Source: Candidatus Aminicenantes bacterium | GTDB lineage: Bacteria; Acidobacteriota; Aminicenantia; Aminicenantales; Aminicenantaceae | Length of the DNA: 59,189 nucleotides | NCBI GenBank assembly: GCA_046538375.1 | Contig: JBKHJA010000001.1 | Coordinates: forward strand, 1-59,189 | Direction: 5' to 3' | Shown here: one piece after another, positions 21,327 through 39,267 of the stretch | How positions within the stretch are numbered: position 1 is the first letter of the stretch | Layout: the number at the start of each line of letters is the position of its first letter | Position numbers and translations under genes: made by a program | The notes under the pieces: generated by a model | Database searches by the model: none | What the model was told of the DNA's origin: nothing | What the model saw: the letters and a program-made list of their open reading frames with translations, nothing else

Positions 21327-22817
21327 ATGCTGAGATTTAAGCTGCCTGGCAGCCGCCTGGCTTGCCTTTTCCTCATCTGGATAGTCTTTCTTTCCCTGTT
21401 TTTCCTAACCTGCTGGGAGACCCCCGAGTCTCTCACCCGGAAAAGGATCAAATCTGTTGAAAAAGGGCTGCTTAAGGCTGTGGTGCTAAGAGGACAAAAG
21501 CTTGAGAAAATGAAACTTTCTAAACGCATGAAATACTACCGGGTATCCGCAGTGAGCTTGGCTGTTATGGATGAATATCAAATAGATTGGGCCAAGGGTT
21601 ACGGGGTCCAAGATAGGAAAGGCATGACCAAGGTAACCAGTGAGTCCTTGTTTCAGGCCGGTTCTCTCAGCCAACCGGTGGCGGCTTTGGGTGCTCTCCA
21701 TTTTGTGAGCACAGGGCGTATGGGATTGGATGAGAATGTCAACCATATCCTGCAGGCCTGGAAGGTTCCTGAGAATCAGTTCACCAGAGAAAAGAAGGTT
21801 ACCCTGAGGGGTTTATTGAGTCACAGTGCAGGCTTGAATGCCTTTAAATTTAAGGGCTACTCCCAAGAGGAAGCCATCCCTTCACTGCTCCAGGTTCTGG
21901 GTGGTCAGAAGCCAACCAACTCCCGGCCCGTCCGGGTGGTCAGCGTGCCAGGAACCCGGATGCGCTATTCTGAGGGAGGGTATGCAGTTTTGCAGCAGCT
22001 CATGGTGGACCTGGAGGGAAAGCCCTTTCCTCAAATCATGGAAGAGACAGTGCTGGAGCCTCTGAACATGAATCACAGCTCCTTTGCCTGGCCTTTGCCC
22101 GTGGGGTTGAGGGAAAGGATGGTTCCTGGTCACCACCGGGATGGACAGAAAGTGGAAGGCGGTTGGTTCCTGTATCCTGAAAAGGCGGCAGCGGGACTGT
22201 GGTCAACCCCTTCTGATTTGGCCCGGTTTGCCATAGCCATCATGGACACAGCCATGGGGAGATCCCAGAGAATCATCTCTCCAAAACTGGCCCGCGCCAT
22301 GTTGACTGTTCAACTTGGAAATAAAGGTTTGGGTTTTTCCATAGGCGATGAGGGGGACAATCTCAATTTCAACCAGAGAGGAAGCAATCAGGGATTCGAA
22401 TGTTATTTGATCGCTTATCCTGTCAGGGGTAAAGGAGCGGTGATCATGACTAACAGTGAAAATGGTGCTTATCTGATTGATGAAATTTGCCGGGCCATTT
22501 CAGAAGCCTATGATTGGCCCCATTTTCAACCCGAAGTCAAAAGCTTGTACAGACTGGATCCCTCTGTCTATGCTCAGTATGTGGGAAAATACGAAGTCAA
22601 TTCCGATTATACCTTGACTGTCACCCACCAAGATTATTACCTGATCATTCAACCCACAGGACAGGCGCCCACCAAATTTTATGTGGAAAACCAGACCACT
22701 TTTTTCTCTACCGATCCTTATATCCAAATCCAGTTTGTCAAAAATGCCCAGGGGGAAGTAAGCGGACTGGTTCTGAGACAGCGGGATACAGGACTGGAGG
22801 CTAAAAAGATAGAATGA
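21327..22817 (+). CDS. beta-lactamase/transpeptidase-fold protein (serine hydrolase family) with apparently degenerate catalytic motifs
   Basis: 496-aa ORF with a signal/lipoprotein-like N-terminus (LFFLTCW). The overall pattern is class-C/DD-peptidase-like (SLFQAGSLSQPVAALG ... LLSHSAGL ... YSEGGY). Confidence 0.8.
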   Translation: MLRFKLPGSRLACLFLIWIVFLSLFFLTCWETPESLTRKRIKSVEKGLLKAVVLRGQKLEKMKLSKRMKYYRVSAVSLAVMDEYQIDWAKGYGVQDRKGMTKVTSESLFQAGSLSQPVAALGALHFVSTGRMGLDENVNHILQAWKVPENQFTREKKVTLRGLLSHSAGLNAFKFKGYSQEEAIPSLLQVLGGQKPTNSRPVRVVSVPGTRMRYSEGGYAVLQQLMVDLEGKPFPQIMEETVLEPLNMNHSSFAWPLPVGLRERMVPGHHRDGQKVEGGWFLYPEKAAAGLWSTPSDLARFAIAIMDTAMGRSQRIISPKLARAMLTVQLGNKGLGFSIGDEGDNLNFNQRGSNQGFECYLIAYPVRGKGAVIMTNSENGAYLIDEICRAISEAYDWPHFQPEVKSLYRLDPSVYAQYVGKYEVNSDYTLTVTHQDYYLIIQPTGQAPTKFYVENQTTFFSTDPYIQIQFVKNAQGEVSGLVLRQRDTGLEAKKIE

Positions 22818-23617: not shown

Positions 23618-24451
23618 TTGAAGATTTGCACTTTTAATGTCAATTCCATAAAAGCCAGAAAGGATTTGATTGTCAATTGGCTGAAGCATAGGGAGAATGA
23701 CCTGGATATTTTGTGTTTTCAAGAATTAAAAACAGTGGACCAGGATTTTCCTTACCAGGATTTCGAAAATATGGGATTTTCTTGTGATGTGGCTGGTCAA
23801 AAAGGATACAATGGTGTGGCCATCTGTTCGAAATTTCCCCAGAGAAGGGTGTTAAAGGATGCCATCGAAAAGCACTGGGATGAACAGAAAAGAGTCATAG
23901 CGGTTAAGGTAAAGGGAATCGATCTGATCAATGTCTATGCTCCCCATGGAGATATGAGGGGAACGGATAAATTTCAGTATAAATTGGATTGGTACAAGAA
24001 ACTTTGTGCCTTTCTCCAGCAGCATTACTCAGCCCGCGATTATCTCATGGTGATGGGTGATTTTAACGTGGCCCTCCAAGACAGGGATGTCTGGTCACCG
24101 GAGATCCTGGCCGACTCTATCGGAACCATGCCTGAAGAGAGGCAGGCCTTCCGGGAACTTATGGAGTGGGGTCTGGTCGACGCTTTCAGGCATCTCTATC
24201 CGGATAAAAGACAATTCACCTGGTGGGATTACATCGGCGGCGCCATCTGGAAGGATTTGGGCATGAGGATCGATTATGCCCTCTGTACCAGACCCTTAAT
24301 CGAGAAATTGGAGAACGTGGAAGTGGATTTATGGCCGAGAAGGAGAAGAAAGCCCACCCCTTCAGATCATGCTCCACTCACCGCCGCTTTCGCTCCCTTT
24401 TCAGAAGAGAAAGGCAGGAAGACAAATAGACGGTTCATTCCACAGCGGTGA
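23618..24451 (+). CDS. xth: exodeoxyribonuclease III
   Basis: 277-aa ORF with a TTG start 6 nt after AGAAAGAGG. (M)KICTFNVNSIKAR ... ILCFQELK ... GDFNV ... PSDHAPL are the ExoIII/AP-endonuclease motifs. The 3' end overlaps the convergent SBP gene by 17 nt. Confidence 0.9.
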   Translation: MKICTFNVNSIKARKDLIVNWLKHRENDLDILCFQELKTVDQDFPYQDFENMGFSCDVAGQKGYNGVAICSKFPQRRVLKDAIEKHWDEQKRVIAVKVKGIDLINVYAPHGDMRGTDKFQYKLDWYKKLCAFLQQHYSARDYLMVMGDFNVALQDRDVWSPEILADSIGTMPEERQAFRELMEWGLVDAFRHLYPDKRQFTWWDYIGGAIWKDLGMRIDYALCTRPLIEKLENVEVDLWPRRRRKPTPSDHAPLTAAFAPFSEEKGRKTNRRFIPQR

Positions 24452-25985
24452 ACACGTCGTGCATGTTCATCCGGCCGTCAGGAATGGGACGCCAGCCTTT
24501 CAGTCGTTTCCTCGCACCGTAGATTTCCTTCATGCTGTAGCCAAAAATCCAGGGGGCATCCTGGAAGATGAGATGCTGGGCCTGGCGTAAGAATTGTTTT
24601 CTTTTCTCGGTGTCCATTCCCTTCTCCGCCTTCTCCAGGAGATGGTCCACAGCAGGATTTGAATAACCGGTATAGTTTCCCCTTCCTTTGCTGTGAAGAG
24701 TGGGTTTGAGGATACCGATCGAATCCAGACTGGCATCACCCCAACTGGAAATGAATAGAGTCCGCTCCTGCTTCATAAGAAGAGTCCTGAGCACCCCCCA
24801 TTCCCAAAGCCGCACCTTGGCTTTGACCTTGACCCTGGCCAACTGAGCGGATAGGGCCAGAGCGATTTCGTTCAAGTCCTGCACGGTATCCAGCTCCACT
24901 TCAAGACCATTCTCATATCCTGCTTCTTTGAGCAGCCTCCGAGCCTTCTGGGGATTGTGCTGATAAGGTCTCAGATCATCATGGTAGCCAAATGATCCCA
25001 GCATCAAAGGGCCGGGCAGCCGCACGGCCATTCCTTCCAGGATGGTATTGATGATAGAGTCTATGTCCACGGCATGGTTCATGGCCCTCCGGACTCTGGG
25101 GTCATCAAACGGAGGCCTGGTGCAGTTCATACCCATGTAGAAACTGCGCGTTCCTCGGCAGGAGAGGATGCGGGTGCGGGGATCTTTGGCTATGTTGCTC
25201 ATCAAATGGGGAGGAACCATCTGAATCAAATCGCATTCCCCTGCTTTCAGAGCAGCCACCCGGGTGGCAGTCTCAGGAATGGGTCTGAAGATCAGGGTCT
25301 TTATGCGGGCTTTTCCTGCTGGAGGAATCTCCGGAGAGCCGCCGTAGTATTGATCAAAGCGCTCCATGATGATGTGTTCGCCTTTCCGCCATTCCACGAA
25401 TCGAAAGGGCCCTGCTCCCACCGGATGTTCGGCAAAATAGGATGAGCCCACCTTCTCCACATAATCCTTGGGGATAATTTCTTGAAAAGGAAGCATGGCT
25501 ATCAGGGTGGGCCACGGTTCGCTGGTCTTGATATGGACAGTGTAATGGTCGATTATGTCCACTCCGGTCACCGGCCCCAGAAGGCCTTTCCGGGGCGAAC
25601 TTTGTCCGTCTACAGCTCCCCGGGTGATAATCCGCTCTATGGTGAATTTCACATCTTCAGCGGTAAAGGGTTCCAGGTTGTGGAAGCGGATGCCTTTTCT
25701 CAATTTGAATTCCCAGGTGTTTTTATCAACCAGCCTCCATTTTTCTGCCATCTGGGGCACCACCTTCATGTCAGGCGTGCGGGTGACCAGTCCGTCAAAC
25801 ATGTTGCGTATCACTGTCTCCACCACCCGGTCGCGGTGCATGGCCGGATCCAGGGTGGAGACAGTCTGGGAAAGCCCGATAATCAAAAGCCCCTTGTGTT
25901 GAGGAGATCTGCACCCTGCTGTGGTGGCCAGTCCTATACCTAGAAGCAAAAATAGAGGTTTGGTGAATAATTTTCTCATTGACAT
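24435..25985 (-). CDS. ABC transporter substrate-binding lipoprotein, peptide/nickel/opine family (cluster 5)
   Basis: 516-aa ORF with a lipobox LATTAGC. The DppA/OppA-like pattern includes LDPA...D, and the length is typical of family-5 SBPs. Its start abuts the stop of the upstream fusion gene (25985/25986). Confidence 0.88.
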   Translation of the reverse strand: MSMRKLFTKPLFLLLGIGLATTAGCRSPQHKGLLIIGLSQTVSTLDPAMHRDRVVETVIRNMFDGLVTRTPDMKVVPQMAEKWRLVDKNTWEFKLRKGIRFHNLEPFTAEDVKFTIERIITRGAVDGQSSPRKGLLGPVTGVDIIDHYTVHIKTSEPWPTLIAMLPFQEIIPKDYVEKVGSSYFAEHPVGAGPFRFVEWRKGEHIIMERFDQYYGGSPEIPPAGKARIKTLIFRPIPETATRVAALKAGECDLIQMVPPHLMSNIAKDPRTRILSCRGTRSFYMGMNCTRPPFDDPRVRRAMNHAVDIDSIINTILEGMAVRLPGPLMLGSFGYHDDLRPYQHNPQKARRLLKEAGYENGLEVELDTVQDLNEIALALSAQLARVKVKAKVRLWEWGVLRTLLMKQERTLFISSWGDASLDSIGILKPTLHSKGRGNYTGYSNPAVDHLLEKAEKGMDTEKRKQFLRQAQHLIFQDAPWIFGYSMKEIYGARKRLKGWRPIPDGRMNMHDVFTAVE

Positions 25986-28592
25986 TCAGTGGGCAAGATG
26001 ACAGGCAACCAGGCGGCCTTCTTCTGTGGATCGGAGTTCTGGCTCTTGCTTTGTGCAGTCCTTCACCTGGGGGAGGGGACAGCGGGGGTGGAACCGGCAT
26101 CCAGAGGGAGGATTCACCGCAGTGGGAGTTTCCCCTGAAATCCGGAGGCCTTTAGGGCCTGGCTGCTGGCCGACTTCCAGGACCGAATCCAGAAGAAGCC
26201 GGGTGTAAGGATGCTGCGGTGAATCGATGATTTGATTCCTGGTTCCTGTCTCCACAATTTTTCCCAAATACATGACCGCAATGCGGTCGCTTATCTGAGC
26301 AATCACTGCAAGGTCGTGGGCGATAAGAAGATAAGTCAAATCAAATTCCCGCTGGAGATTTTTCAACAGGTTCATGATCTGGGCTTGGATAGAAATGTCC
26401 AGTGCAGCCACCGGTTCATCAGCCACTATAAACCGGGGATGAACCGCCAATGCCCTGGCAATCCCGATGCGCTGCCGCTGGCCGCCGCTGAATTGATGGG
26501 GATAATGGCCGGCCCATTCACAGGAAAGCCCCGCCTGTTCCATAAGCCGGAATACTTTCTTTTCCTTTTCCTCTGCTGTCAGGTTGAAGTGGAGTTTCAA
26601 AGGGAGAGAGAGAATTTTTTTGACCGTCTGACGGGGATTGAGTGAGGCATAGGGGTCTTGGAAGATGATCTGCATCTCGGTGCGCAGGGGGCGCAGCTGC
26701 CGCCAGCTCAGGTGGGTAATGTCCAGGTCTTTGAAAAGAATTTGTCCTTCAGTGGGTTCCTCAAGCCTGAGGATGGTTCGTCCTAGAGTGGACTTGCCGC
26801 AGCCGCTCTCGCCCACCAATCCAAGGACTTCCCCTGGATAAATGTCGAGGGAGACGCCATCCACTGCCCGGATGTGCGCTCCTTTTTTCCTCCGGGTTTT
26901 GGTGACCGGAAAATGTTTCTTGAGATTCCTGATTCGAATCAGCGGTTGATCTGCTGGGTTTGAACGGCCAGCATTCTTTTGGTGGGTGCCAGGATTGTGT
27001 CCAGCAGGTTTTCCGTATCCTCCGCCGCCAGGAGTGATGATGCGGAGGAGATCCCCGCGCTTCAACTTATGGGGTTTTCGAGGATTGAGTACTTTTTCTC
27101 TCTTGGTTCCGGGATTCAGGACCCATTTGCCCTTCTGGCCGGGCTGGCCCCCAAACAAACCTGGAGGGGCCATCTTCTGCCGGTCTGTCTTTCCCATCTG
27201 GCTTACTCCATCTGCCAGCACCCGGATATCCTTTTGCAGACCCCGTCCTCCTGGCCAGCGTCCTCTGCCTCCAGAGTGAGGGACCAGCTTATGCCTTTCT
27301 ATACGAACCGGAAATTCGGTTTCTGCCACTTCCACGGGCAGGTTGATGGAATTGGAGGTGTTGGTCTGGACCCCGTCCAGGCCGTCTTTACCCGGACGGC
27401 CCCCGTCGCCTCCTCCTAGGACTTCTTCGTACACGAAGACCTGCTTTGTTTGAGGGTGTCGACCGCTCAGACAGCACACAGTGGTGCAGCCGCAGCCTGA
27501 GGCCTTGGCTCTCTCCGGGAGAGCCTGAGCCAGGGCGCCGATCACCACATCAGCCACCCGCTGCATGGTGTCAGAGCGGGCTCCTACTGCTGCCGGAAAT
27601 CGAGGATTGACCACGGTTCCTTTTTCTCCTGCTTGGATGATGACAGGGCGAAAGCAGCCGGAGTTGGGAGGTATGGTAGGATCGGTAAAACAGCGAACCG
27701 CAAAATAGACACCCACCTTGAGGTTAGAGCGGGGAAGATTGATGGCCCCTTGGGCTTGGGGATCAGTGCCTGAAAAGTCCATCTTCATCTGATCACCGGC
27801 GACCTCCGCACACACCCTGATGGCCTTCGGAGGACCGCCCATACCGTCATCATCCATGGCATCCTCATACTCATACACGCCGTCGGGGATTTTCTCGATT
27901 TCTTCTCTCATCCGCTTTTCCGAGTACTCCTGCACCGCTCTCATGCCAGCCAGCAGTGCCTCTCTCCCGTATTTTTTTACGGCCTCCAGGAGGCGGCGTT
28001 CGCCGGTACGGCAGGCAGCGATTTGAGCGCTCAGGTCGCCCCGGAATGTTTCTGGAGTGCGGACATTGGCAGCGATAAGGCCGATCAGGTCTTGATTGAA
28101 TTCACCCCGGTGGCAGAGCTTCATCACCGACAGCCGCACTCCCTCCTGGAAAATCTCTTGATTATCCCCTGCGTAACTGGCTGGAAGACGTCCTCCTATA
28201 TCCTGATGGTGTCCGATATTGGAGACAAATCCCATCAGTTTTCCTGCTTGGTAAACCGGAGCAGAAACAGTGATGTCGTTCAAGTGGGCACCACCGCCCA
28301 CATAAGGATCATTGGCCAGAAAAATGTCTCCTTTGTGGATGGATTCATTTTCTGATGGGGAAAGAATAGCCTGACTTAAACCTAAGAGAGAGCCCAGATG
28401 GACAGGATTGTGTTCCCCCTGAGCCACACAGTTCCCCTGGGCATCGAACAGGGCACAGGAACAGTCTTCTCTTTCCTTGATTCCGGGGGAATAACTGCTC
28501 CTGACCAGAGCCAGCCACATTTCGTCAGTGATAGTCAGGAACAGGTTGTTCAGCAGTTCAAAAGTAATAGGATCCACTCTTTCCATGAACAT
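25986..28592 (-). CDS. fusion protein: hydantoinase B/oxoprolinase-family subunit (N-terminal ~525 aa) + oligopeptide-type ABC transporter ATP-binding domain (C-terminal ~320 aa)
   Basis: Uninterrupted 868-aa ORF. The N-terminal half has RVDPITFELLNN...SYSPGIKEREDCSCALFD ... ITPGGGGYG (HyuB pattern). The C-terminal half has Walker A GESGCGKS, signature FSGGQRQR, Walker B FIVADEPVAALD, H-loop IAHDL, and a C-terminal CRFHPRCP motif as in DppF/OppF. Confidence 0.85.
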   Translation of the reverse strand: MFMERVDPITFELLNNLFLTITDEMWLALVRSSYSPGIKEREDCSCALFDAQGNCVAQGEHNPVHLGSLLGLSQAILSPSENESIHKGDIFLANDPYVGGGAHLNDITVSAPVYQAGKLMGFVSNIGHHQDIGGRLPASYAGDNQEIFQEGVRLSVMKLCHRGEFNQDLIGLIAANVRTPETFRGDLSAQIAACRTGERRLLEAVKKYGREALLAGMRAVQEYSEKRMREEIEKIPDGVYEYEDAMDDDGMGGPPKAIRVCAEVAGDQMKMDFSGTDPQAQGAINLPRSNLKVGVYFAVRCFTDPTIPPNSGCFRPVIIQAGEKGTVVNPRFPAAVGARSDTMQRVADVVIGALAQALPERAKASGCGCTTVCCLSGRHPQTKQVFVYEEVLGGGDGGRPGKDGLDGVQTNTSNSINLPVEVAETEFPVRIERHKLVPHSGGRGRWPGGRGLQKDIRVLADGVSQMGKTDRQKMAPPGLFGGQPGQKGKWVLNPGTKREKVLNPRKPHKLKRGDLLRIITPGGGGYGKPAGHNPGTHQKNAGRSNPADQPLIRIRNLKKHFPVTKTRRKKGAHIRAVDGVSLDIYPGEVLGLVGESGCGKSTLGRTILRLEEPTEGQILFKDLDITHLSWRQLRPLRTEMQIIFQDPYASLNPRQTVKKILSLPLKLHFNLTAEEKEKKVFRLMEQAGLSCEWAGHYPHQFSGGQRQRIGIARALAVHPRFIVADEPVAALDISIQAQIMNLLKNLQREFDLTYLLIAHDLAVIAQISDRIAVMYLGKIVETGTRNQIIDSPQHPYTRLLLDSVLEVGQQPGPKGLRISGETPTAVNPPSGCRFHPRCPLPQVKDCTKQEPELRSTEEGRLVACHLAH

Positions 28593-28596
28593 TACC

Positions 28597-30717
28597 TCAA
28601 TGCCTGGTCAGCATAAGATTTTCATGAGAATCTCTTCGAGCCTTCCACCCAGGAGGAATCACTGTGGTGGAATTGGGTTCTTCTATGACGGCCGGCCCCT
28701 CAATCTCGGTGACCCTGGCTGGACAGAGGTTGGTCCGTTCATAGATAGGCGTTTCCACCAAGCCCTGGCTCTGTTTGAAAAAGACTTTCCTTTTTCCTTT
28801 GAAAACCGATTGATTTGCTTTGGGATGATAATGCGGCAGCGCAATATCTGGACTTTTTACAATTATAGTGACCCTTAAATTGACCAGCTGGAGAGGATGA
28901 TGGGGGTGGGAGTGTCCGTAGAAGTGGTGGTGTTCAGTATGGAAACGATTTGCCACTTTCTGCAGATGGTTTTGCTTCAGGGGTCTGGAGGGGAACGAAA
29001 TGTTAAGCCAGTGAGTTTGACCTTGGTAGCGGATATCTGCGCTTCGCTTCACCTGCCCTTTTTTGCTGGGCACCTGTTTTTTTAACTGCTGGCGGGCTTT
29101 CTTCTCCAGGCCGCCAAAAAGGTTTTCTATTTCTTCTGTTTTCCTGGAGGAGAGGGGCATCATCCTGGCCAGGGAAACATCCACCCGCAGATCACTGGCC
29201 AGCAGCCCGTAACAGGAAAAAAGGCCGGGTTCCACAGGAACGATGACTTTGGGGATTTGAAGTTCTTCAGCCAAATCCGCCCCATGCGCTCCTCCAGAGC
29301 CGCCAAAAGCGATCAGGGTGAACTGTCTGGGATCCTGTCCTCTCTCCAGAGAGATAAATCTGAGCGCCCGCAGCATATTGGCGTTGGCGATCTGGATGAT
29401 ACCTTGGGCAGCCTGGAAAATGCTCAGCCCTAACGGTTCAGCGATCTTGGATTGAATGGCAGTGCGGGCTGCCCGGGCATCCAGGGGCATCCTTCCTTCC
29501 AGGAAGTATTTGGGATTGAGACGCCCTAAAACCAAGTTGGCATCGGTCACCGTAGGACTTTTCCCTCCTTGGCCGTAGCACACTGGTCCAGGATTTACCC
29601 CTGCGCTTTGAGGGCCCACATTCAAGGCTCCCCCAGAATCTATCCAGGCAGTGCTCCCTGCTCCAGCGCCCACTTCAGCCAGATCGAGGCTGGGCAGGCG
29701 AAGCGGATATCCTCCTCCTTTTTTAACATTATGCCCGTACAGGCTTCCTCCGATCTCCTGTTCTGAGGTGAAGGGAGATTGCCCGTCCTGTATCAGGCTG
29801 GCTTTGGCTGTGGTGCCGCCCATATCAAAGGAGATGGCATTTTTCAGATTGAGTAATCTGGCCAGGTGGGCGGAAGCGGTCACTCCTGCTGCTGGTCCGG
29901 ACTCCACCATTTTGGCCGGGAGTTCTCTAGCCATGACCGGAGTCATCATGCCTCCGTTGGATCCCATGATACGCAGGGAATTGGCACTTCCTTTCTCCTG
30001 CACTGCCTTCTCCACTTTGCTTAAATATTGGTCTACCAGAGGGCGCAGACAGGCGTTGATCACGGTGGCCGATGTCCTTTCGTATTCCCGAATCTCAGGC
30101 AGGACTTCTGAGGAAAGGCAGACCATAACTTCTGGATAATACCGGCTGATGGTTTCTTTGACTTTATACTCGGAGGCAGGATTGAGGTAGGAGAACAGAA
30201 AACACACAGCCAAAGCACTCACTTTTTCCTGTTTGACCAGTTTTTTCAGGACAGGGTCCAATTCTTTTTCATTGACCGGGGTCAGGATATTTCCGCTGGC
30301 ATCGGTCCGTTCCGAAACTTCTTTCCTCAGGCAAGAAGGAATGAGAGGAGGGATTTTCTCTGTAAAAAAATCATAGGGTTGGGGCCTTTTCTGCCTGGCG
30401 ATTTCCAGGATGTCTCCAAATCCTTTGGTGGTTATTAAGGCAGTCTTGGCCGTTTTGCCCTCTAAGATGGCATTGGTGGCTGCAGTGGTGGCGTGGATGA
30501 GAACACTCATTTCCTCAGGACTTTTCTGGGCCTTGTTCAACAGTTCTTCCCAGGCTTGAAGAAAGCCCAGGGAAACATCTGGAGTGCTGGTGGCAACTTT
30601 GGTGGTGAATGTCTTTCCTTCTTGTTGATCCATCAGCAGACCATCGGTAAAAGTCCCTCCGATGTCAACACCCACTTTAAACCTGGTCATGGTTTTCCTC
30701 TTTTTTGGGGAAGTCAA
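28597..30717 (-). CDS. hydantoinase A/oxoprolinase-family subunit (ATP-binding, actin-like fold)
   Basis: 706-aa ORF. KVGVDIGGTFTD is the N-terminal phosphate-binding motif, followed by a second GGT motif (SFDMGGTTA). The length is typical of HyuA. Alternative start at ATG 30690 (MTRFKVGVDIGG). Confidence 0.9.
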   Translation of the reverse strand: MTSPKKRKTMTRFKVGVDIGGTFTDGLLMDQQEGKTFTTKVATSTPDVSLGFLQAWEELLNKAQKSPEEMSVLIHATTAATNAILEGKTAKTALITTKGFGDILEIARQKRPQPYDFFTEKIPPLIPSCLRKEVSERTDASGNILTPVNEKELDPVLKKLVKQEKVSALAVCFLFSYLNPASEYKVKETISRYYPEVMVCLSSEVLPEIREYERTSATVINACLRPLVDQYLSKVEKAVQEKGSANSLRIMGSNGGMMTPVMARELPAKMVESGPAAGVTASAHLARLLNLKNAISFDMGGTTAKASLIQDGQSPFTSEQEIGGSLYGHNVKKGGGYPLRLPSLDLAEVGAGAGSTAWIDSGGALNVGPQSAGVNPGPVCYGQGGKSPTVTDANLVLGRLNPKYFLEGRMPLDARAARTAIQSKIAEPLGLSIFQAAQGIIQIANANMLRALRFISLERGQDPRQFTLIAFGGSGGAHGADLAEELQIPKVIVPVEPGLFSCYGLLASDLRVDVSLARMMPLSSRKTEEIENLFGGLEKKARQQLKKQVPSKKGQVKRSADIRYQGQTHWLNISFPSRPLKQNHLQKVANRFHTEHHHFYGHSHPHHPLQLVNLRVTIIVKSPDIALPHYHPKANQSVFKGKRKVFFKQSQGLVETPIYERTNLCPARVTEIEGPAVIEEPNSTTVIPPGWKARRDSHENLMLTRH

Positions 30718-31735
30718 GATGACACCTCACCTGCCAGTTTCCATCTACAGTGAGGAGCCGGGGTTTTTCTTTCCGGCAGCGTTCCATCAGATGAGGACAG
30801 CGGTCCTGGAAGGTACATCCAGGCGGCAGGTCAGACAGATCCGGAACTTCCCCAGGAATGGGGTAGATGTACTTTTTTCTCTGTAATGCGGGAAGGCATT
30901 CCAGAAGACCCTGGGTGTAGGGGTGTCTGGGGGAAGAAAAGACCTGGGAGGTCAATCCGTGCTCCACAATTTGTCCGGCGTACATCACCGCCACCCGTTT
31001 GCAGAGATAGTCTATGGTCCCTATGTCATGGGTGATAAGAAGGATCGAGGTTCTGTATTTTTCTCTGATTTCAGCCAGAAGGTTCAGGATTTGCACCTGT
31101 ACGGTCACATCCAGGGCGGTGGTTGGCTCGTCAGCAATGAGCAGTAAAGGATTGCAGGCCAGCCCGGCAGCAATGATGGCCCGCTGACGCATCCCTCCGC
31201 TCAACTGGTGAGGATACTGGCGGGTTCGCTCTCTAGGAGATGGGATGTGGACCAGCCGCATGAGCTCCAGAACCCTCTGTTGAATAGTCCCTCTCTGGGC
31301 CTGGTTATTCTTCCTTTCTGGCTGCCAGTGGTGGATTTTTAGAACCTCAGCAATTTGATAACCCACCTGAAGCACAGGATTGAGAGTGGTCAGGGGATCC
31401 TGGAAAACCATGGCTATGGACCGTCCCCGTATCCGCTGCATTTCCTTTTCCGGCTGCTGGAGCAGGTCCACACCTTGGAAAAAGATTTCTCCGGAGACAA
31501 TCCGGCCCGGTGGGGATATAAGGCGGAGGAGGGAGAGAGCAAATACACTTTTTCCGCACCCGGATTCTCCCACCAGTCCCAGAGCCTCACCCTGGTTCAG
31601 GATCAAGCTTACTCCATCCACTGCCTTCACTGTGCCCTGGTGAGTAAAGAAATAGGTGCTCAGATTGTTTATGTTCAGTAAAGGTGACCGGTAAGCTGCG
31701 GGGTTTATGTTTTTTTTGTTCTCTTTGATCTTCAT
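30677..31735 (-). CDS. oligopeptide/dipeptide-type ABC transporter ATP-binding protein (DppD/OppD-like)
   Basis: The track ORF 30677..32260 is over-extended. Its first ~175 codons overlap the permease gene in another frame. The true start is ATG 31735 (MKIKENKK...), which forms an ATGA overlap with the permease stop. Walker A GESGCGKS, LSGGMRQR, IADEPTTALD and ITHD motifs are present. Confidence 0.9.
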   Translation of the reverse strand: MKIKENKKNINPAAYRSPLLNINNLSTYFFTHQGTVKAVDGVSLILNQGEALGLVGESGCGKSVFALSLLRLISPPGRIVSGEIFFQGVDLLQQPEKEMQRIRGRSIAMVFQDPLTTLNPVLQVGYQIAEVLKIHHWQPERKNNQAQRGTIQQRVLELMRLVHIPSPRERTRQYPHQLSGGMRQRAIIAAGLACNPLLLIADEPTTALDVTVQVQILNLLAEIREKYRTSILLITHDIGTIDYLCKRVAVMYAGQIVEHGLTSQVFSSPRHPYTQGLLECLPALQRKKYIYPIPGEVPDLSDLPPGCTFQDRCPHLMERCRKEKPRLLTVDGNWQVRCHLDFPKKEENHDQV

Positions 31736-32610
31736 CTCATCTGACTCTTGAGTCTGGGGTCCAGGACTTCGCGCAGCCCGTTTCCGAACATATTCACTCC
31801 CATCACCATGATGAGAATAGCCAGGCCGGGAAAGGTGGCGATCCACCACTCTTCGAGGAGGTAGGCTCTGCCTTCGCTGACCATCCCCCCCCAGCTGGGG
31901 AAGGGAGGCTGAATACCCAGACCCAGAAAGCTCAAAGAGGCTTCCAGCAGGATGATGATAGCCACGTTGAGAGTGGCGAACACCATCACTGAGGAGAGCA
32001 CATTGGGGAATATCTCTCCAGCCATGATACGGCCATGGCCGGCCCCCATGGACTCTGCGGCCTCCACATATTCCCGGGTTTTGGCGGACAGAGTGTCCCC
32101 CCGCACCAGGCGGCAGAAGGGCACCCAGCCTTTTATGGTCAAAGTGATGATGATGTTCATCAATCCCGGCTTGAGAAAGGCCATCATGCCGATAGCAAAA
32201 AGCATGAAAGGAAAAGCCAGGAGAATATCCACTATCCGGGATATCACTGAATCCAGCCATCCGCCGAAATAGCCGGCCAAAAGGCCCAGCACAGATCCTA
32301 TAAAGGCAGAGAGGATGACCACCACCACTCCTACCAGGATAGAAACACGTGCCCCATACAGGATCCGGCTCAACAGATCACGCCCTTGCTGGTCGCAGCC
32401 TAAGGGATAGGTCCAGTCACCTCCCTTCATCCATGCCGGCGGTTTGAATCGGTTTGTCAAACGGCCGTGAAAAGGATCATGGGGAGAAATGAGGGGAGTG
32501 AAAACAGCGCACAGGGTGAAGAGAAACACCACTCCACCGCCCACCACAGCCAGTCGGTGGCGGCGGATCTTAAGCCAGAATGAGCGCAAGTTTCTTGAAT
32601 CCATCCTCAT
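31732..32610 (-). CDS. ABC transporter permease (DppC/OppC-like)
   Basis: 292-aa polytopic membrane ORF with an N-terminal RRHRLA... pattern and the EAA-loop region YVEAAESMGAGHGRIM. Confidence 0.9.
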   Translation of the reverse strand: MRMDSRNLRSFWLKIRRHRLAVVGGGVVFLFTLCAVFTPLISPHDPFHGRLTNRFKPPAWMKGGDWTYPLGCDQQGRDLLSRILYGARVSILVGVVVVILSAFIGSVLGLLAGYFGGWLDSVISRIVDILLAFPFMLFAIGMMAFLKPGLMNIIITLTIKGWVPFCRLVRGDTLSAKTREYVEAAESMGAGHGRIMAGEIFPNVLSSVMVFATLNVAIIILLEASLSFLGLGIQPPFPSWGGMVSEGRAYLLEEWWIATFPGLAILIMVMGVNMFGNGLREVLDPRLKSQMR

Positions 32611-32621
32611 CCTATTCTCTA

Positions 32622-33635
32622 TCAGACATTCTCAATCCTGGGATTGAGGTAGGTGTACAGCATGTCGGTAGCGAAATTGATGACCACATAGGTCACTGCG
32701 TAAAGCAGCACAGCGCCTTGAACCAGAGGGTAGTTGCGGGCATAAATGGCATCCACTGTCATCCGGCCCAGTCCGGGCCAGCCGAACACGGTTTCGATGA
32801 TCATATTGCCGCCCAAAAGAGACCCCAGTTGAAGGCCCACCACACTTATCACCGGAATCATGGCGTTTTTGAGAGCATGATTCAAGGCCACCACTCTTTC
32901 CGGAAGACCCTTAGCCCTGGCGAAAAGGATGTAATCCTGCTGAAGCATCTCCAGCATGGAAGCACGAGTCATCCGCATGGTCACCGCTGCTGTCCATCCT
33001 CCCAGGGCCACAGCTGGAAGCAGCAGGTGACGCAGGGCACTCAGGAGGGCCGCTCCGTTGAGGGTGATCATGGAATCCAGAACATAGCAGCCGGTGATGG
33101 TTTTTAAAGAAATACCATAGTCGATCCGCCCTGAAACAGGCAGCCATTCCAGTCTCATTCCGAAGATGAGAATGAGCAGCACTCCGATCAAAAAGCCGGG
33201 CATGGAGATACCCAGCAGGGCTGACCAGGAGGCTCCGTGATCCAGGATTCCATGCGGCCGCATGGCTGAGATCATTCCCAGAGGGATGGCCACCAGCAGG
33301 GCCAGGAACATGGCGGTGAAGGTCAGCTCCACGGTGGCCGGAAGATAATCACCGATCACTTCTGTTACCGGGCGCTGGTGAGTGAAGGAGAGGCCTAAGT
33401 CGCCCTGCACAGCTCTGGTGATGAAGTAAAAATATTGAACAGGAAAAGGCCGGTCCAGGCCGTATTGATGCCGAAGCTGCTCCACTTCCTGTTGGCTGAC
33501 TCCTGCCGCTTCCCCCATCATCAGTTCCACCGGATCGCCGGGAGTCAAATGCAGGAAGGAAAAGATGATGAAACTGACACCCATAAGCACCAGGATGGTT
33601 TGGGCCGAACGCTTGGCTAAGAACCGAATCCACAT
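32622..33635 (-). CDS. ABC transporter permease (DppB/OppB-like)
   Basis: 337-aa polytopic membrane ORF. The N-terminus has LTPGDPVE and the EAA loop is DYILFARAKGLPERVV. Confidence 0.9.
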   Translation of the reverse strand: MWIRFLAKRSAQTILVLMGVSFIIFSFLHLTPGDPVELMMGEAAGVSQQEVEQLRHQYGLDRPFPVQYFYFITRAVQGDLGLSFTHQRPVTEVIGDYLPATVELTFTAMFLALLVAIPLGMISAMRPHGILDHGASWSALLGISMPGFLIGVLLILIFGMRLEWLPVSGRIDYGISLKTITGCYVLDSMITLNGAALLSALRHLLLPAVALGGWTAAVTMRMTRASMLEMLQQDYILFARAKGLPERVVALNHALKNAMIPVISVVGLQLGSLLGGNMIIETVFGWPGLGRMTVDAIYARNYPLVQGAVLLYAVTYVVINFATDMLYTYLNPRIENV

Positions 33636-33737: not shown

Positions 33738-33795
33738 GGTGAGGAATGGGGCTTCCTCACCCCCATCCATCATGCCTTTGTATTATATATTTACC
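33738..33795. repeat. intergenic repeat family copy B (C-rich orientation)
   Basis: ggggcttcctcacccccatcc (33748..33768) matches ggggcttcctcaccccccatcc at 53145..53166 apart from one C. It is followed by tttgtattatatattta, like copy A. GGTGAGGAA/TTCCTCACC form a 9-bp hairpin. Confidence 0.7.
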
Positions 33796-34029
33796 ACAGT
33801 ATTGGAAGTGCTTACATCCTTTTTTCTTGACTGGTATTTGCGGCTTGTAATACATTTATCCTTCTGCAAAAATGTCCATCAGGGTTTCTTGCGAGCTTAC
33901 TGCTCACTCAAGCTTTTTCAGAACTGGACCTCTATCAGGAAAGAACCCCCCGGGAACAGCTCCTGGAGAGAGAAACGAAGAAAGCGAAGTGAGAGAAATT
34001 TCTATTTCTTAACATCAAAGGAGGATGGC

Positions 34030-35388
34030 ATGAACCGCTGCTTGAAAGGATGGATAATCTTTTTTTCCTGCCTGTTTGTATATCTCCATGGTGGGGACGG
34101 GCAGCCTGTGGAGGAAAAAACTTTTTCCATAGCCTTGACCGGAGACTCCATTATCACCAGGAAGCTGTCGGTGTACCAGGAGCCGGAGTTCAGGAAAATG
34201 ATCGAACTCATTCGACAGGCGGATGCGGCCTTCACCAATCTTGAGATCCTGTTCCACGACTACGAATCCTACCCCATGCACCAGAGCGGGGGAACTTATA
34301 TGAGAACCGATCCTTCCCTGGCTGCAGAGCTTTGTTGGGCTGGCTTTGATATGGTCTCCCGGGCCAACAACCATGCGGGTGACTATGGTGTTTTAGGCAT
34401 GCATTTGACAACCAAGTATGTGGATCAGGCAGGTTTAGTCCATGCTGGAGTAGGGGACAGTCTTGCCGAAGCACGGGAAGCCAGGTTTCTGGATACGGCC
34501 AAAGCCCGTCTGGCTTTGGTTTCGTGTGCTTCATCCTTTCCTGACCATGCCCGGGCTGGAAAGACCCGAGGCGGTATCCCTCCCAGGCCCGGACTGAATC
34601 CTCTGCGCCACCAGACTACCTATGTGGTGACACCCCCACAGTTTGAAATGTTAAAGGAAATAGGGGAACAGTTGGGGATGAAGCTCTCAGAAAAAGAGGA
34701 GGAGATTAAGTTTCTGAGTTCCCGCTTCATGAAAGGAAAAGAGCCCCAAGTTCGCACTGAACCGCTAAAGGAAGATCTGGAAGAAATTGCTGCTGTGGTC
34801 GAAAATGCCAGCCGCTTGGCGGATTATACCCTGGTGAGTATCCATGCCCATGAAAGCAAAAAGGAGCGCTTTGTTCCAGCCCAGTTTCTGATCACCTTCG
34901 CTCACGCCGTGATTGAGGCAGGTGCGGATGTGGTGGTGGGACATGGCCCTCATGTGCTCCGGGGAATTGAGATTTATCAAGGGAAACCCATCTTCTACAG
35001 CTTGGGCAATTTCATATTCCAGAACGAAACTCTTCTGCGCCTGCCTTATGAAAACTACCAGCGCTACAAATTGGGCCCGGACAAGCATGTGGCTGATTTT
35101 AATGATGCCCGCTATGACTTGGACCGGAAAGGATTTCCAGCCAAGGAGGAATTCTGGGAGTCGGTGATCGCTGTTCCCTGCTGGATGGGAAAAAAGCTGG
35201 AGGAGATTAAACTGTATCCCATAACCTTGGGGTATGGGAAACCGCGGACTGTCCGCGGCCGGCCATTATTTGCTGAGGGGGATTTAAGATTAAAGATTAT
35301 CCAGCGCCTCAAGCGTTACTCCCAGCCTTACGGCACTGCCGTTGATTATCAGGAAGGAATCGGAGTAATAAGATTATCTTCTCAATAA
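34030..35388 (+). CDS. CapA/PGA_cap-family metallophosphatase-fold protein, exported
   Basis: The track ORF starts at 33739. I use ATG 34030, preceded by AAGGAGGA, giving a signal-peptide start MNRCLKGWIIFFSCLFVYLHG. Motifs are LTGDS, ANNHAGDYG, VSIHAHE and VVGHGPHVLRGIE. Confidence 0.8.
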   Translation: MNRCLKGWIIFFSCLFVYLHGGDGQPVEEKTFSIALTGDSIITRKLSVYQEPEFRKMIELIRQADAAFTNLEILFHDYESYPMHQSGGTYMRTDPSLAAELCWAGFDMVSRANNHAGDYGVLGMHLTTKYVDQAGLVHAGVGDSLAEAREARFLDTAKARLALVSCASSFPDHARAGKTRGGIPPRPGLNPLRHQTTYVVTPPQFEMLKEIGEQLGMKLSEKEEEIKFLSSRFMKGKEPQVRTEPLKEDLEEIAAVVENASRLADYTLVSIHAHESKKERFVPAQFLITFAHAVIEAGADVVVGHGPHVLRGIEIYQGKPIFYSLGNFIFQNETLLRLPYENYQRYKLGPDKHVADFNDARYDLDRKGFPAKEEFWESVIAVPCWMGKKLEEIKLYPITLGYGKPRTVRGRPLFAEGDLRLKIIQRLKRYSQPYGTAVDYQEGIGVIRLSSQ

Positions 35389-35656: not shown

Positions 35657-37249
35657 ATGGGTCATCGTTCAAAGATTTATGCAGAGAAAAAACATCTTTC
35701 GCCGATGAGAAAGGTTTTAAGGATCAAAGTGTTCTTGATGGCACCTTTTTTCTTTCTTATTTTTCATTGTGCAGCCGGATGCCAGGGAGTAGATAAAAAT
35801 AAAGAAGACATAAGAATTGCCGTGGCCAGATTTTCCCATGAGACCTGCACTTTTTGTCCCCAGCCCACCACCGTCGAGGATTGGGAATACTATGGTCCGC
35901 CCACCCGTGATATTGTGGATACCAACAGGGGATACATAGGGGGCTTTAAAAACATGTGCCAGGAGTATGGAGGCGTTGAGCTGGTGGGGATCATTTCACC
36001 TCGAGGGGCCAGGGGAGGTTCTTCGGGAAGCTGGAACACCAGAGAGGTTTTTGAAAAATACTCTAACCTCATCATCGAAGATCTGAAGGAGTTAGGCCTC
36101 TTTGATGGGATTTTTCTTTCACTCCATGGAGCCATGGCTGTGGAGGGCATCCCCAAGCCTGAAGCTGAGCTGGTGCGAAGAGTGCGGAAAGCAGTGGGTG
36201 ATATCCCCATCATGATCACCTTGGACCTTCATGCCAACGAAGATCACCAGCTTTCCGATGCTGCTGATGGGGTGTTCATTGTCAAGAGGTATCCCCATTA
36301 CGATACCTTTCTTCAAGGAGAGAGGGCAGCCCGGGTGATGATCAACACCATCCGCGGCAGTTATCAGCCCTGTATGGCCACCCGAAAGCCAGGAGTGATC
36401 ACTCCCAGTGTTTATCAGGGGACAGGTGTCTCTCCGGCCATGGATATCATGGAGCGGGCCCGCCGGTGGGAATGCCGGTATCCCGGTGTCTATGTGTCTG
36501 TGGCTTTCGGATTCGCTTATGCTGATGTCCCTGATGTGGGAGCCACGGTCATGGTGGTGGCCGACAGCGACCAGGAACTGGCTGACCGGATTGCTGATGA
36601 TATGTCTGACTACATCTGGAGGATGAGGGAAGAGTTTGCCGGGAAAAAGCTTCCCCAGACCAAACAAGGAGTGGCTCTAGCCATCCAGGCCGTAGAAGCT
36701 GGGAAAACTCCTGTGGTGATCGCTGATCACAGCGACAGAACCGGTGGATCCACCCACATCCTGGAAGAGTTGATCAGCCAAGGCGCCAGGAATTTCTGCA
36801 TAGCCACTCTCCGGGACGAAAAAGCGATCCAGAGGATAAAAAAGACAGCGAAGGTGGGTGAAAAGATCACCATCCATGTGGGCGGATATACGGACAAATT
36901 TGCTGGAAATCCAGTGAGGATTGAAGGAACCGTTGAGTTTCTCGGAGATTATGGACAGAGGGGAACTGTGGCCGTGCTTCTTTTTGGCGAAAACAACCGT
37001 ATCATACTCACGCCTCAGCTCACCCAGGTGACCACCCCTGATTTTCTGGATCCTCTGGATATAGACATCAAAGACCTGGATATCATTGTGCTAAAGTCCC
37101 GGGTCCACTTCAGGAGAGGATTTTATGAAACCGGTTTGGCCGGGGCCATCTTTGAGGTGGACGCGCCAGGATGGGGTCCTGCCGATTTGAGCACTCTTCC
37201 TTATAAAAATATTCCCAAGGATATTTATCCTGTGTACAAGAAGGACTGA
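35657..37249 (+). CDS. M81-family (MlrC-like) metallopeptidase, lipoprotein
   Basis: 530-aa ORF with a GAGGAGGA Shine-Dalgarno and a lipobox HCAAGCQG. IRIAVARFSHETCTF is the characteristic MlrC N-terminal motif, followed by LSLHGAM and LDLHAN. Confidence 0.82.
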   Translation: MGHRSKIYAEKKHLSPMRKVLRIKVFLMAPFFFLIFHCAAGCQGVDKNKEDIRIAVARFSHETCTFCPQPTTVEDWEYYGPPTRDIVDTNRGYIGGFKNMCQEYGGVELVGIISPRGARGGSSGSWNTREVFEKYSNLIIEDLKELGLFDGIFLSLHGAMAVEGIPKPEAELVRRVRKAVGDIPIMITLDLHANEDHQLSDAADGVFIVKRYPHYDTFLQGERAARVMINTIRGSYQPCMATRKPGVITPSVYQGTGVSPAMDIMERARRWECRYPGVYVSVAFGFAYADVPDVGATVMVVADSDQELADRIADDMSDYIWRMREEFAGKKLPQTKQGVALAIQAVEAGKTPVVIADHSDRTGGSTHILEELISQGARNFCIATLRDEKAIQRIKKTAKVGEKITIHVGGYTDKFAGNPVRIEGTVEFLGDYGQRGTVAVLLFGENNRIILTPQLTQVTTPDFLDPLDIDIKDLDIIVLKSRVHFRRGFYETGLAGAIFEVDAPGWGPADLSTLPYKNIPKDIYPVYKKD

Positions 37250-37311: not shown

Positions 37312-39267
37312 TTAAAATTGAAAGCCCAGCAGATTCCAGTAATAAAGAAACCACATAAAGACCGCCGCTGCCAGTAACACCAGGGTGTAATGCACCCTGG
37401 CGCATCCCAGCCAGTACCTGTTTTTCCAGGCGAAGATGGTAAAGATTAAAGTCCCTACTCCCAGAACGATAGAAATAATGGGAATAACAAGAAATACTTT
37501 TAACAGAGTAGGAACGCCGTAGGAGACCTGCATGGGATCGCTGAGAGTGGCTACTAATCCGATTAGAAACAGCACATTCAACATGCTCATAGACCCTGCC
37601 AGCCAGCGGGCTGTCTTGGGCTCATCTCTTTTCTCTTTTCGACGCCTGCACACCACCCTGTACAAAGCTCCGATGGGCCATCCCAGGGTGGACAAAAATA
37701 GAATGACACACACGGCCAGCAATATGTAGTGAAAAACAGGAGCCTGGTACCATTTTAATTTGTAGAAAGCAAAGTAGGGTATCTGGTTTAAATAAGCATG
37801 GGTGATATGGCCTTCCGCATCTTCTTTAAACAGAAGAATATCCTGCCCGTCCAGTTCATGGAAAACCAGAGGTTCTACCTCCACCCACTGTTTGCCTCCT
37901 CCCAATTCTTTGGGTAAAGGAAGCAGCAGGGTACCCTCATCGGTCGCTTTAAATTTGAAGGCAGAAAAGAGATTGGCTACTTTTTCGTAAGTGGTAAACA
38001 CACTCCTGGTCATCCCGTAGCTTCCTGTATATCGTCCTGCCCTCTTCTTGAAGTCAGCTGGGGGCTCAGGCTCGGGAACTTCAGGAACAGGATAGTAGCG
38101 GTCCAGAAAAGCCTGCAGAAGTTCCTCCCGAGGTGTTCCTGCTCCTCCCTGACTGTTGTAAGAGACAAATAAGCCCACATTTTTTCCAGGGATGAGCATG
38201 AGGTCTGTATGAAAATACCTGGTGTCCCCTCCATGGCCGATCATCCTCAGATTATTCTGGGTCCTTTCCCAGAAGCCGTGGGCATTGCCGTCCAAGCGGG
38301 AATCGGCGGAAAAAAGCTGAGAGTGCATCAGTTTTGCTGTTTCTTCTTTTAATATTCTTTTTTCTCCATATTTTCCGTTCTGGAGATGGGCAATCATGAA
38401 CTTGGCCATATCCGTTGCTGTGGTGCTCATCGAACCTGCCGGGGCCATGCCGTTGATCAGCCAAAAATCCTTGGCCTTAAAAAGCCCATTCTTATGGATA
38501 TAACCTTTGGACATATGATCTGCTAATTTTTCAGGAAGGGGCTGGCGGAAAGTGCTCATGTTCATATCCAGAGGCTTGTAGATATTTTCCTCCACGTATT
38601 GTTGGAAAGGCATTCCTGATGCTATTTCCACGATATACCCGGCCAGGGCCGTTCCGTAGTTGGAGTAGGCTGTGATTTTGCCGGGGGGGTAAATCCTGGC
38701 AGGCATGTGGTTGGCTAAAAATTCGCCAAGGGATTCCAGGTCTTCGGCTGTGCGGGCTGACATTCCTGTCCACACATCTTCGAAACCCGGAGTGTGTGTC
38801 AGGAGGTGAGTCAGGGTGATGGAGTCAGGATAGGTTTCTGGAATTTTAAAATCTTCCAGGTAAGTGTTCACATCTGTGTTTAAATCGAGCTTGCCCTGCT
38901 CGAAGAGCTGCATCACCGCGGTCCAGGTGAAAAGTTTGGATGCCGAACCGGGCCGGAATAAGGTCTTATCAGCTTCCACAGGCTTTTTCTTCTCCACATC
39001 CGCATAGCCGTATCCCTTGGCGAAGAAAATTTCTCCATCCTTAACCAGAGAAAAGGCGGCTCCAGCGATATGATGGGAAGCCATGTGAGCGGACATGATG
39101 CCGTCGATAAAAGTTTCCAGTTCATCAGGGTCGATAAGTCCAGATGGAGGATAGATTTCTTGTTCAGTTTCTCCTGCTTCAGGCCTGCTTTCTTGAGCAA
39201 GGGGGGTCAGGGGAATGAGCCAAAAGATGAACAGGAACACAGAGATGGCGTGGATAAATTTTTTCAT
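37312..39267 (-). CDS. serine hydrolase (beta-lactamase/DD-peptidase fold) with C-terminal four-helix membrane anchor
   Basis: 651-aa ORF with a signal peptide. Canonical motifs are SxxK (GSASKLFT), YxN (YSNYG) and HxG (GHGGDT). The last ~150 aa contain four hydrophobic helices. Confidence 0.88.
   Translation of the reverse strand: MKKFIHAISVFLFIFWLIPLTPLAQESRPEAGETEQEIYPPSGLIDPDELETFIDGIMSAHMASHHIAGAAFSLVKDGEIFFAKGYGYADVEKKKPVEADKTLFRPGSASKLFTWTAVMQLFEQGKLDLNTDVNTYLEDFKIPETYPDSITLTHLLTHTPGFEDVWTGMSARTAEDLESLGEFLANHMPARIYPPGKITAYSNYGTALAGYIVEIASGMPFQQYVEENIYKPLDMNMSTFRQPLPEKLADHMSKGYIHKNGLFKAKDFWLINGMAPAGSMSTTATDMAKFMIAHLQNGKYGEKRILKEETAKLMHSQLFSADSRLDGNAHGFWERTQNNLRMIGHGGDTRYFHTDLMLIPGKNVGLFVSYNSQGGAGTPREELLQAFLDRYYPVPEVPEPEPPADFKKRAGRYTGSYGMTRSVFTTYEKVANLFSAFKFKATDEGTLLLPLPKELGGGKQWVEVEPLVFHELDGQDILLFKEDAEGHITHAYLNQIPYFAFYKLKWYQAPVFHYILLAVCVILFLSTLGWPIGALYRVVCRRRKEKRDEPKTARWLAGSMSMLNVLFLIGLVATLSDPMQVSYGVPTLLKVFLVIPIISIVLGVGTLIFTIFAWKNRYWLGCARVHYTLVLLAAAVFMWFLYYWNLLGFQF

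Follow-up and report, generated by a model that had tools for sequence, protein, structure and literature searches.

A predicted in-frame fusion of a HyuB-type enzyme subunit and a DppF-type importer ATPase in an uncultured Aminicenantes population

The fused reading frame and its operon

The stretch of DNA analysed here (the window, 59,189 nucleotides) is the start of contig JBKHJA010000001.1 from a metagenome-assembled genome that NCBI labels Candidatus Aminicenantes (GCA_046538375.1). The window is 92% coding and contains 45 long open reading frames (ORFs). In the ORF listing of the window, positions 25986..28592 of the minus strand form one uninterrupted ORF of 868 amino acids that starts with ATG. 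It joins the beta subunit of a hydantoinase-type enzyme (HyuB) to an F-type ATPase (DppF) of a Dpp/Opp-type ATP-binding cassette (ABC) importer. The NCBI annotation also gives one protein (MFP4081142.1, 866 amino acids). The parts of the fusion gene are as follows.

27012..28592, minus strand: HyuB (beta subunit) part of the fusion, residues 1-527, with GGGGYG at its C-terminal end.
26943..27011, minus strand: linker KPAGHNPGTHQKNAGRSNPADQP, 23 residues, with neither a stop nor a canonical start codon.
25986..26942, minus strand: DppF/OppF-type (F-type) ATPase part of the fusion, residues 551-868 and the stop codon.
26939..27013, minus strand: relic of the +1 frame, ENLLDTILAPTKRMLAVQTQQINR-TGA; the TGA (26941..26939) overlaps the CTG codon of L551.
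27009..27012, minus strand: run of four A (A4; TTTT on the plus strand), which with one A fewer gives a separate HyuB of 550 residues.

Both halves match Pfam profiles. Hydantoinase_B (PF02538) covers residues 7-529 over the entire profile (positions 1-519 of 519) with an E-value of 2e-181 and 604 bits, against a cutoff of 26.8. ABC_tran lies at residues 578-729 (114 bits) and oligo_HPY at residues 780-841 (61.9 bits). The 868-codon ORF with two full-length domain matches far exceeds what is expected by chance. The translation carries RVDPITFELLNN and ITPGGGGYG, and the ATPase half keeps Walker A (GESGCGKS), the signature (FSGGQRQR), Walker B (FIVADEPVAALD), the H-loop (IAHDL), CRFHPRCP and the four C-terminal Cys residues.

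No in-frame ATG, GTG or TTG is present between the TTG codon of L510, inside HyuB, and the GTG codon of V577, inside the ATPase. V577 lies 17 residues before Walker A, where stand-alone homologues have at least 42 residues. The dppF part has no canonical start codon of its own. Residues P, G, N and Q are abundant in the linker, and its longest homopolymer is the A4 run. In the fusion frame, the peptides across the junction are ...IITPGGGGYGKPAGHNPGTHQK and SNPADQPLIR, and the +1-frame counterpart is ...GYGNLLDTILAPTK. A first-pass annotation made from the sequence had proposed most of this architecture. Its single 868-codon ORF joining two proteins is borne out by the ORF listing and the Pfam domains, its HyuB assignment by the full-length profile match, and its complete DppF/OppF-type ATPase by the motifs and the two ATPase-half domains. 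The linker translation at 26943..27011, the lack of a separate ATPase start, and the other frame that ends at a TGA (26941..26939) where the ATPase begins were all reproduced.

The catalytic motifs of both predicted halves are intact. In an alignment of 23 sequences, the window protein included, the HyuB half holds the same residue in 70 of the 70 invariant columns. Residues D43, H103, D106 and H128 are invariant in this alignment and align with D41, H99, D102 and H124 of CapB (6yra_B), which form the Asp-His-Asp-His metal-binding tetrad of that protein (PMC8453981). The neighbouring HyuA has the motifs DIGGTFTD, DMGGT and GVNPGP, in agreement with the ATP-site (ASKHA) motifs described for CapA (PMC8453981). 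HyuA and HyuB score 541 and 280 bits against the NCBIfam CapA and CapB models (cutoff 1000), and by this equivalog criterion the predicted pair is in the family but is not a caprolactamase.

The ATPase half is 73% identical to the second ATPase of its closest orthologous operon (locus L084) and about 42% identical to the first, which indicates F-type orthology. Among PDB structures it matches Escherichia coli DppF (8z1v_D) with an E-value of 1.7e-90 and DppD with 6e-60. It falls below the NCBIfam cutoffs for PRK11308 (380 versus 408 bits), OppF (335 versus 540 bits) and DppF (320 versus 660 bits).

The join is sterically plausible, because both termini tolerate extensions, F-type ATPases are already known in tethered form, and the linker is predicted to be disordered. 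HyuB homologues carry tails of 2-63 residues after GGGGYG, and DppF homologues have 42-92 residues before Walker A. In F-type ATPases, the upstream gene product is often attached at the N-terminus; examples are the DppD-DppF and DppC-DppD-DppF fusions, including the solved structures 8j5q and 8wd9. In the AlphaFold2 model, the predicted local distance difference test score is mostly above 90 over residues 1-530 and below 50 at residues 532-545, within the linker.

The fusion gene lies in a tightly packed minus-strand operon with the order dppB-dppC-dppD-hyuA-hyuB::dppF-SBP_bac_5. This is the context of an F-type ATPase, in which two permeases, a D-type ATPase and an SBP_bac_5 substrate-binding protein (SBP) are all present. 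All six operon genes are intact.

32622..33635, minus strand: dppB-like permease, first gene of the operon (Pfam BPD_transp_1_N and BPD_transp_1).
31732..32610, minus strand: dppC-like permease (Pfam OppC_N and BPD_transp_1).
30677..31735, minus strand: dppD-like (D-type) ATPase, 352 amino acids (gene call from a Logan contig; Pfam ABC_tran and oligo_HPY).
28597..30690, minus strand: hyuA, the alpha (ATP-binding) subunit (Pfam Hydant_A_N, Hydantoinase_A and Hydant_A_C).
25986..28592, minus strand: hyuB::dppF fusion (ORF and Pfam).
24435..25985, minus strand: SBP_bac_5 substrate-binding protein (Pfam SBP_bac_5), whose ATG directly abuts the fusion stop codon.

The start of dppD overlaps the stop of dppC. 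A 527-amino-acid ORF at 30677-32260 (minus strand) is an over-extended dppD that crosses dppC in another frame and is rejected in favour of the gene at 31735..30677. The ATG of hyuA, which belongs to the hydantoinase/oxoprolinase/caprolactamase family, overlaps the last codons of dppD and is preceded by an AGAGGA motif. The best NCBIfam match of the SBP is GsiB (194 bits versus a cutoff of 594).

The operon (24435-33635) has a G+C content of 0.51-0.55, compared to 0.43-0.50 for most flanking genes. Given the raised G+C content, the whole dpp-hyu operon may have been acquired as an island. The SBP gene shares 17 nucleotides at its 3' end with a convergent gene for an exonuclease III-like protein (Exo_endo_phos; 23618-24451, plus strand). 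Genes for processing amides and peptides are numerous nearby (33739-35388, 35657-37249 and 21327-22817 on the plus strand; 37312-39267 and 42081-44756 on the minus strand). Their products include PGA_cap, an M81 MlrC-like metallopeptidase, two PF00144 serine hydrolases (beta-lactamase/DD-peptidase-like) and an outer-membrane protein resembling TonB-dependent receptors. As a lead, these genes and the GsiB match of the SBP may point to unusual peptides or amides as substrates, such as gamma-glutamyl or pyroglutamyl peptides. No tRNA gene was found in the 59 kb.

Distribution of the architecture and origin of the locus

The first-pass annotation had suggested searching for proteins that combine Hydantoinase_B with ABC_tran or oligo_HPY. 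In a search of 5.8 billion proteins, the two domains occur together in the window's own protein alone among the 120 matches listed. Those ranked next in this list are tandem ATPases and proteins with HyuB only, the latter not exceeding 49-50% identity. An exhaustive HMMER search of 1.84 billion representatives likewise contains no HyuB-ATPase fusion in its best 150 matches, which are tandem DppD-DppF ATPases or HyuB-only proteins. A HyuB-ATPase fusion would be expected to rank above all of these. The query's own protein or cluster is also absent from the 1.84-billion matches and from a second, word-indexed search. The 1.84-billion library is therefore incomplete, and absence from the lists is not proof of absence. 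The long matches that were checked are DppD-DppF, DppC-DppD-DppF or HyuA-HyuB fusions. A scan of JGI metagenome DNA with a pattern that allowed for variable linker length gave no match, and no described protein combining HyuB with an ABC ATPase was found in the literature searched.

Two of the proteins examined (P0180 and P0190) are triple fusions of DppC permease, DppD and DppF, with lengths of about 1000-1050 amino acids. These show that genes of this operon type fuse readily with their neighbours.

In a sample of 80 hyuB loci from GTDB species representatives, importer genes of the Dpp/Opp type lie beside hyuAB in about 10 genomes (L004, L005, L011, L013, L022, L049, L055, L065, L070 and L076). 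The genetic linkage of hyuAB and importer is therefore ordinary in itself. None of the 80 loci is fused, and none has hyuAB between two ATPase genes. The usual order is hyuA-hyuB-dppD-dppF-dppB-dppC-SBP, or SBP-dppB-dppC-dppD-dppF after hyuB. The loci with this linkage (L005, L011, L049, L055, L065, L070, L076 and others) span very different phyla. The two loci with the closest HyuB homologues (L001 and L002) have no ATPase downstream of hyuB. In L001 (8001-12708; HyuB 49% identical), a small PSK_trans_fac ORF separates hyuA and hyuB, and hyuB is followed by three small ORFs without a Pfam match and then by an SBP_bac_5 gene.

The closest stand-alone relatives of the ATPase half are P0272 (73%), P0273 (69%) and P0277 (64%), all of which are closer than any HyuB relative. 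The operon that holds P0272 (L084) has the order dppB-dppC-dppD-66 nucleotides-dppF-SBP and does not contain hyuAB. Identity to its orthologues is 85% for DppB, 81% for DppC, 73% for DppD, 73% for DppF and 81% for the SBP. In a further locus (L088), dppD is directly followed by dppF. Because the ATPase genes are adjacent and hyuAB is lacking in the closest orthologous operons, the most likely history by parsimony is that hyuAB was inserted between dppD and dppF in this lineage.

Similarity to the orthologues, in both DNA and protein, resumes only around '(N)..QPL', at about position 26951. With the insertion, hyuAB would therefore have taken the place of the spacer and the Shine-Dalgarno sequence, and also of the dppF start codon and the roughly 20 codons of its leader. 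No repeats that could mark the insertion were found flanking hyuAB beyond the paralogy of dppD and dppF. At the junction, no promoter-like or terminator-like sites were found, with counts at the shuffled background. Homology of the linker to the leaders of DppF orthologues was considered and rejected. Neither the fusion frame against P0277 ('MQKQ...QPL') nor the +1 frame against P0273 ('ML..Q..') is supported, with shuffling p >0.35 for all pairs of frame and orthologue. On these alignments, no homology is claimed upstream of about 'QPL'.

Reading frame of the linker and competing explanations

The frame of the linker was scored with a codon log-odds model built from 34 window genes and the two halves of the fusion, and with a second model built from the operon only. 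The scored stretch comprises 17 codons, from just after the last HyuB-homologous residues (GGGGYGKPAG) up to where DppF homology sets in. In the fusion frame the linker scores as non-coding-like, in the 2nd-4th percentile of true in-frame windows (2.3rd for the 17 codons). In the +1 frame (TILAPTKRMLAVQTQQI) it scores like real coding sequence, and the score is exceeded by 0.013% of all +1 windows and by 0.035% of stop-free +1 windows (P about 3e-4). With the operon-only model, 0 of 2910 windows score as high. Since the codon usage of the linker fits the +1 frame and not the fusion frame, it indicates that the linker is now read outside its historical frame and that the fusion is young.

The first-pass annotation had proposed that an indel of one nucleotide near 27010 created the fusion. 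The codon usage and the A4 run agree with this, and deleting one A of the run yields a 550-amino-acid HyuB that ends ...GYGNLLDTILAPTKRMLAVQTQQINR-TGA. Two results do not fit as well. A C-terminal profile of 87 HyuB tails supports the fusion frame, only through 'GKPA' and by about 3.5-4 bits. Beyond 'GKPA' this profile matches none of the three frames. The shift itself may therefore be a few bases further downstream than the A run. A dppF gene separate from hyuB would have no start codon other than CTG or ATT, and nothing resembling a Shine-Dalgarno sequence precedes these. Because these start options are poor, the locus may instead have acquired two indels that compensate each other, within a fusion or overlap of greater age. 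A single missing base near 'ATCAACCG', with dppF starting at the +1-frame ATG, is rejected, since hyuB would extend into dppF for 64 codons in the +2 frame.

The best explanation of the locus is a genuine, lineage-specific in-frame fusion of the neighbouring hyuB and dppF genes in an uncultured Aminicenantes population. That the fusion is real and young and provides DppF function with HyuB tethered to it is judged probable, with modest confidence. The hyuAB pair is a predicted ATP-dependent lactam/hydantoin amidohydrolase of the CapAB/N-methylhydantoinase/oxoprolinase family. As it stands, hyuB has no stop codon, and dppF has neither leader nor start codon. The join would be made most simply by a change of +1 nucleotide in the 3' tail of hyuB, for example from A3 to A4 at 27009..27012, after which translation of hyuB would no longer meet its old TGA and would continue into dppF. 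With no other canonical start for dppF, a polypeptide of 95 kDa would be the only source in the cell of the importer's F-type ATPase. The fusion would dock on DppBC together with DppD, so that HyuB, and HyuA through HyuB, would be held at the cytoplasmic mouth of the importer. An imported cyclic amide or lactam-type substrate could then be opened by HyuAB close to its point of entry. Physical coupling of transport and catabolism by the predicted fusion protein is plausible.

In caprolactamase, ATP-dependent activation of the lactam takes place in the alpha subunit, and the activated intermediate then crosses a 40-Å tunnel to the metal site of the beta subunit; the enzyme is an (alpha-beta)2 tetramer with a core of two beta subunits (PMC8453981). 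The tether would fix a 1:1 stoichiometry. Because CapB-type subunits form this dimeric core, one enzyme could bridge two importers. A working transport metabolon, in which HyuA2B2 sits under the permease, maybe bridges two importers, and takes the cyclic amide directly from the translocation pathway, is a tentative extension that is itself rather unlikely.

Several observations weigh against a real fusion that provides DppF function. It has no second example among the listed matches of both protein searches, it comes from one population, and the closest HyuB relative among the matches listed is only 49% identical. The codon usage implies that the linker has not long been translated in the fusion frame, and the event is maybe too recent for selection. 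The AlphaFold2 model of the ATPase half is poor, with only 3 homologues in its alignment, and no inter-domain geometry was obtained. The two assemblies that contain the junction (described below) may stem from the same or sister samples. The scope is thus one allele in one uncultured population, whose sequence itself points to recency and gives no sign yet of long-term retention.

The explanation that survives best after this one is a real but recent, non-adaptive frameshift, whose product is impaired or merely tolerated and which represents a transient allele or the first step of operon decay. It is considered unlikely, with a share of the probability that is not small. The coding-like usage of the +1 frame next to the non-coding-like fusion frame, the lack of relatives with the fusion among the listed matches, and the old TGA exactly at the start of DppF homology are all consistent with it. 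However, the state before the shift would itself be awkward, given the start options of dppF. In addition, the six operon genes and the motifs of both halves are intact, both termini accept extensions and fusions in relatives, and the allele is the consensus in two assemblies.

A sequencing or assembly artefact is less probable still. Under this explanation, the A run at 27009..27012 is really one base shorter, or the linker has an indel elsewhere, and the genome encodes a 550-amino-acid HyuB and a separate DppF. The short A4 homopolymer at the sole place where a single-base change separates the genes, the codon usage that favours the +1 frame, and the metagenomic origin of the genome speak for it. 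The second assembly speaks against it. At 90% identity, the protein cluster of the fusion has two members, the NCBI protein and an 868-amino-acid protein from the Logan assembly of run SRR21542050. The Logan contig is 32 kb long and has the same gene order as the window. It aligns to the window over 17,779 nucleotides at 99.989% identity, with 2 mismatches (window positions 22751 and 17282) and 0 gaps. Both single-nucleotide polymorphisms fall outside the fusion gene, and the junction is identical. This contig ends at window position 33764, about 130 nucleotides upstream of dppB.

Because of the two polymorphisms, the Logan contig represents a different consensus from another, k-mer-based assembler. 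A one-off assembly indel is unlikely, because this independent assembly has the identical ORF. No split genes are obvious in the ORF map of the 59 kb. If the runs are short-read data, an A4 homopolymer is too short to be error-prone. Through 'GKPA', the profile of HyuB tails also gives the fusion frame a slight edge. An error-corrected gene model would still leave dppF without ATG, GTG or TTG and with CTG or ATT as its sole start options. A sequencing error that mimics the fusion, which the first-pass annotation had allowed for, is thus unlikely given the identical, gap-free Logan junction. The probability of an artefact is small, and it is not put any lower because the two assemblies may share related samples and the platform may not be a short-read one.

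Programmed frameshifting, in which most ribosomes would shift +1 and stop at the TGA to give free HyuB while the rest make the fusion, is very improbable: the well-preserved +1 ORF does end exactly at the domain boundary and GGAGGA lies just upstream of the A run, but GGAGGA simply encodes the conserved GGGGY motif, reading the sequence revealed neither a recognisable slippery motif nor a stop or rare codon that would stimulate the shift, and no Rfam family matches anywhere in the 59-kb window at the gathering threshold.

If the young fusion works both as an ATPase and as an enzyme subunit, it would provide a naturally occurring ABC importer with a physical tether to the enzyme that breaks down what it imports. 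Such hard-wiring of ABC import to the first catabolic step was not found described in the literature searched. An active fusion would also provide a 'Rosetta-stone' link, by which the unfused loci with hyuAB and Dpp/Opp genes (about 10 of 80) would be predicted to import the substrate of an ATP-dependent lactamase. With it, a construct would be at hand to test whether co-localisation accelerates uptake or shields intermediates that are labile or toxic. If the fusion is neutral, the locus is still a snapshot of the birth of a fusion, in which insertion into an operon removed a start codon and a single-base frameshift made the tail of a gene into a linker.

Comparison with known systems

The Dpp/Opp (PepT-family) importers, such as E. 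coli DppBCDF (8z1v) and OppBCDF (8z21), share with the window operon the two permeases, the SBP_bac_5 protein, and the D-type and F-type ATPases with oligo_HPY. Unlike in these systems, the F-type ATPase of the window has an enzyme subunit of 527 residues at its N-terminus and no start of its own, and hyuAB lies between dppD and dppF. The window ATPase also remains under the NCBIfam equivalog cutoffs for DppF and OppF.

In the tandem-ATPase fusions (Mycobacterium tuberculosis OppD Rv1281c, 8j5q, and DppD, 8wd9; GsiA; YejF; P0180 and P0190), the N-terminus of the F-type ATPase is likewise tethered by a short linker. Their upstream partner is a transporter component, whereas that of the window is a subunit of a catabolic enzyme.

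The enzymes CapAB (6yra), N-methylhydantoinase (7hk5, an alpha-beta fusion) and 5-oxoprolinase share with the window pair the adjacent HyuA and HyuB, the metal tetrad and the ATP-site motifs. Gene fusion is already seen in the lactamase/hydantoinase family as HyuA-HyuB (for example, P0204). In the window, by contrast, the partner is an ABC ATPase at the C-terminus of HyuB. The window pair also lies below the CapA and CapB cutoffs, and the closest HyuB among the matches listed is 49% identical.

Coupling of the same two functions is found in the opine-lactam catabolic regions of Ti-plasmids, where genes for hydantoinase/oxoprolinase A and B lie near ABC importer genes (PMC6733357). According to the authors' proposal, the HyuA/B-like products of these regions act by ring opening on the lactams of opines that have been imported (PMC6733357). 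These Ti-plasmid genes are not fused, and only a shared operon or regulon couples them.

The importer ATPases MalK, MetN, OpuAA and NrtC/CmpC likewise bear an extra domain. In these proteins the extra domain is C-terminal and regulatory, and it senses ligands to gate transport. The extra domain of the window ATPase is instead N-terminal and catalytic. What is new at this locus is the fusion partner, the catalytic subunit of a separate ATP-dependent enzyme.

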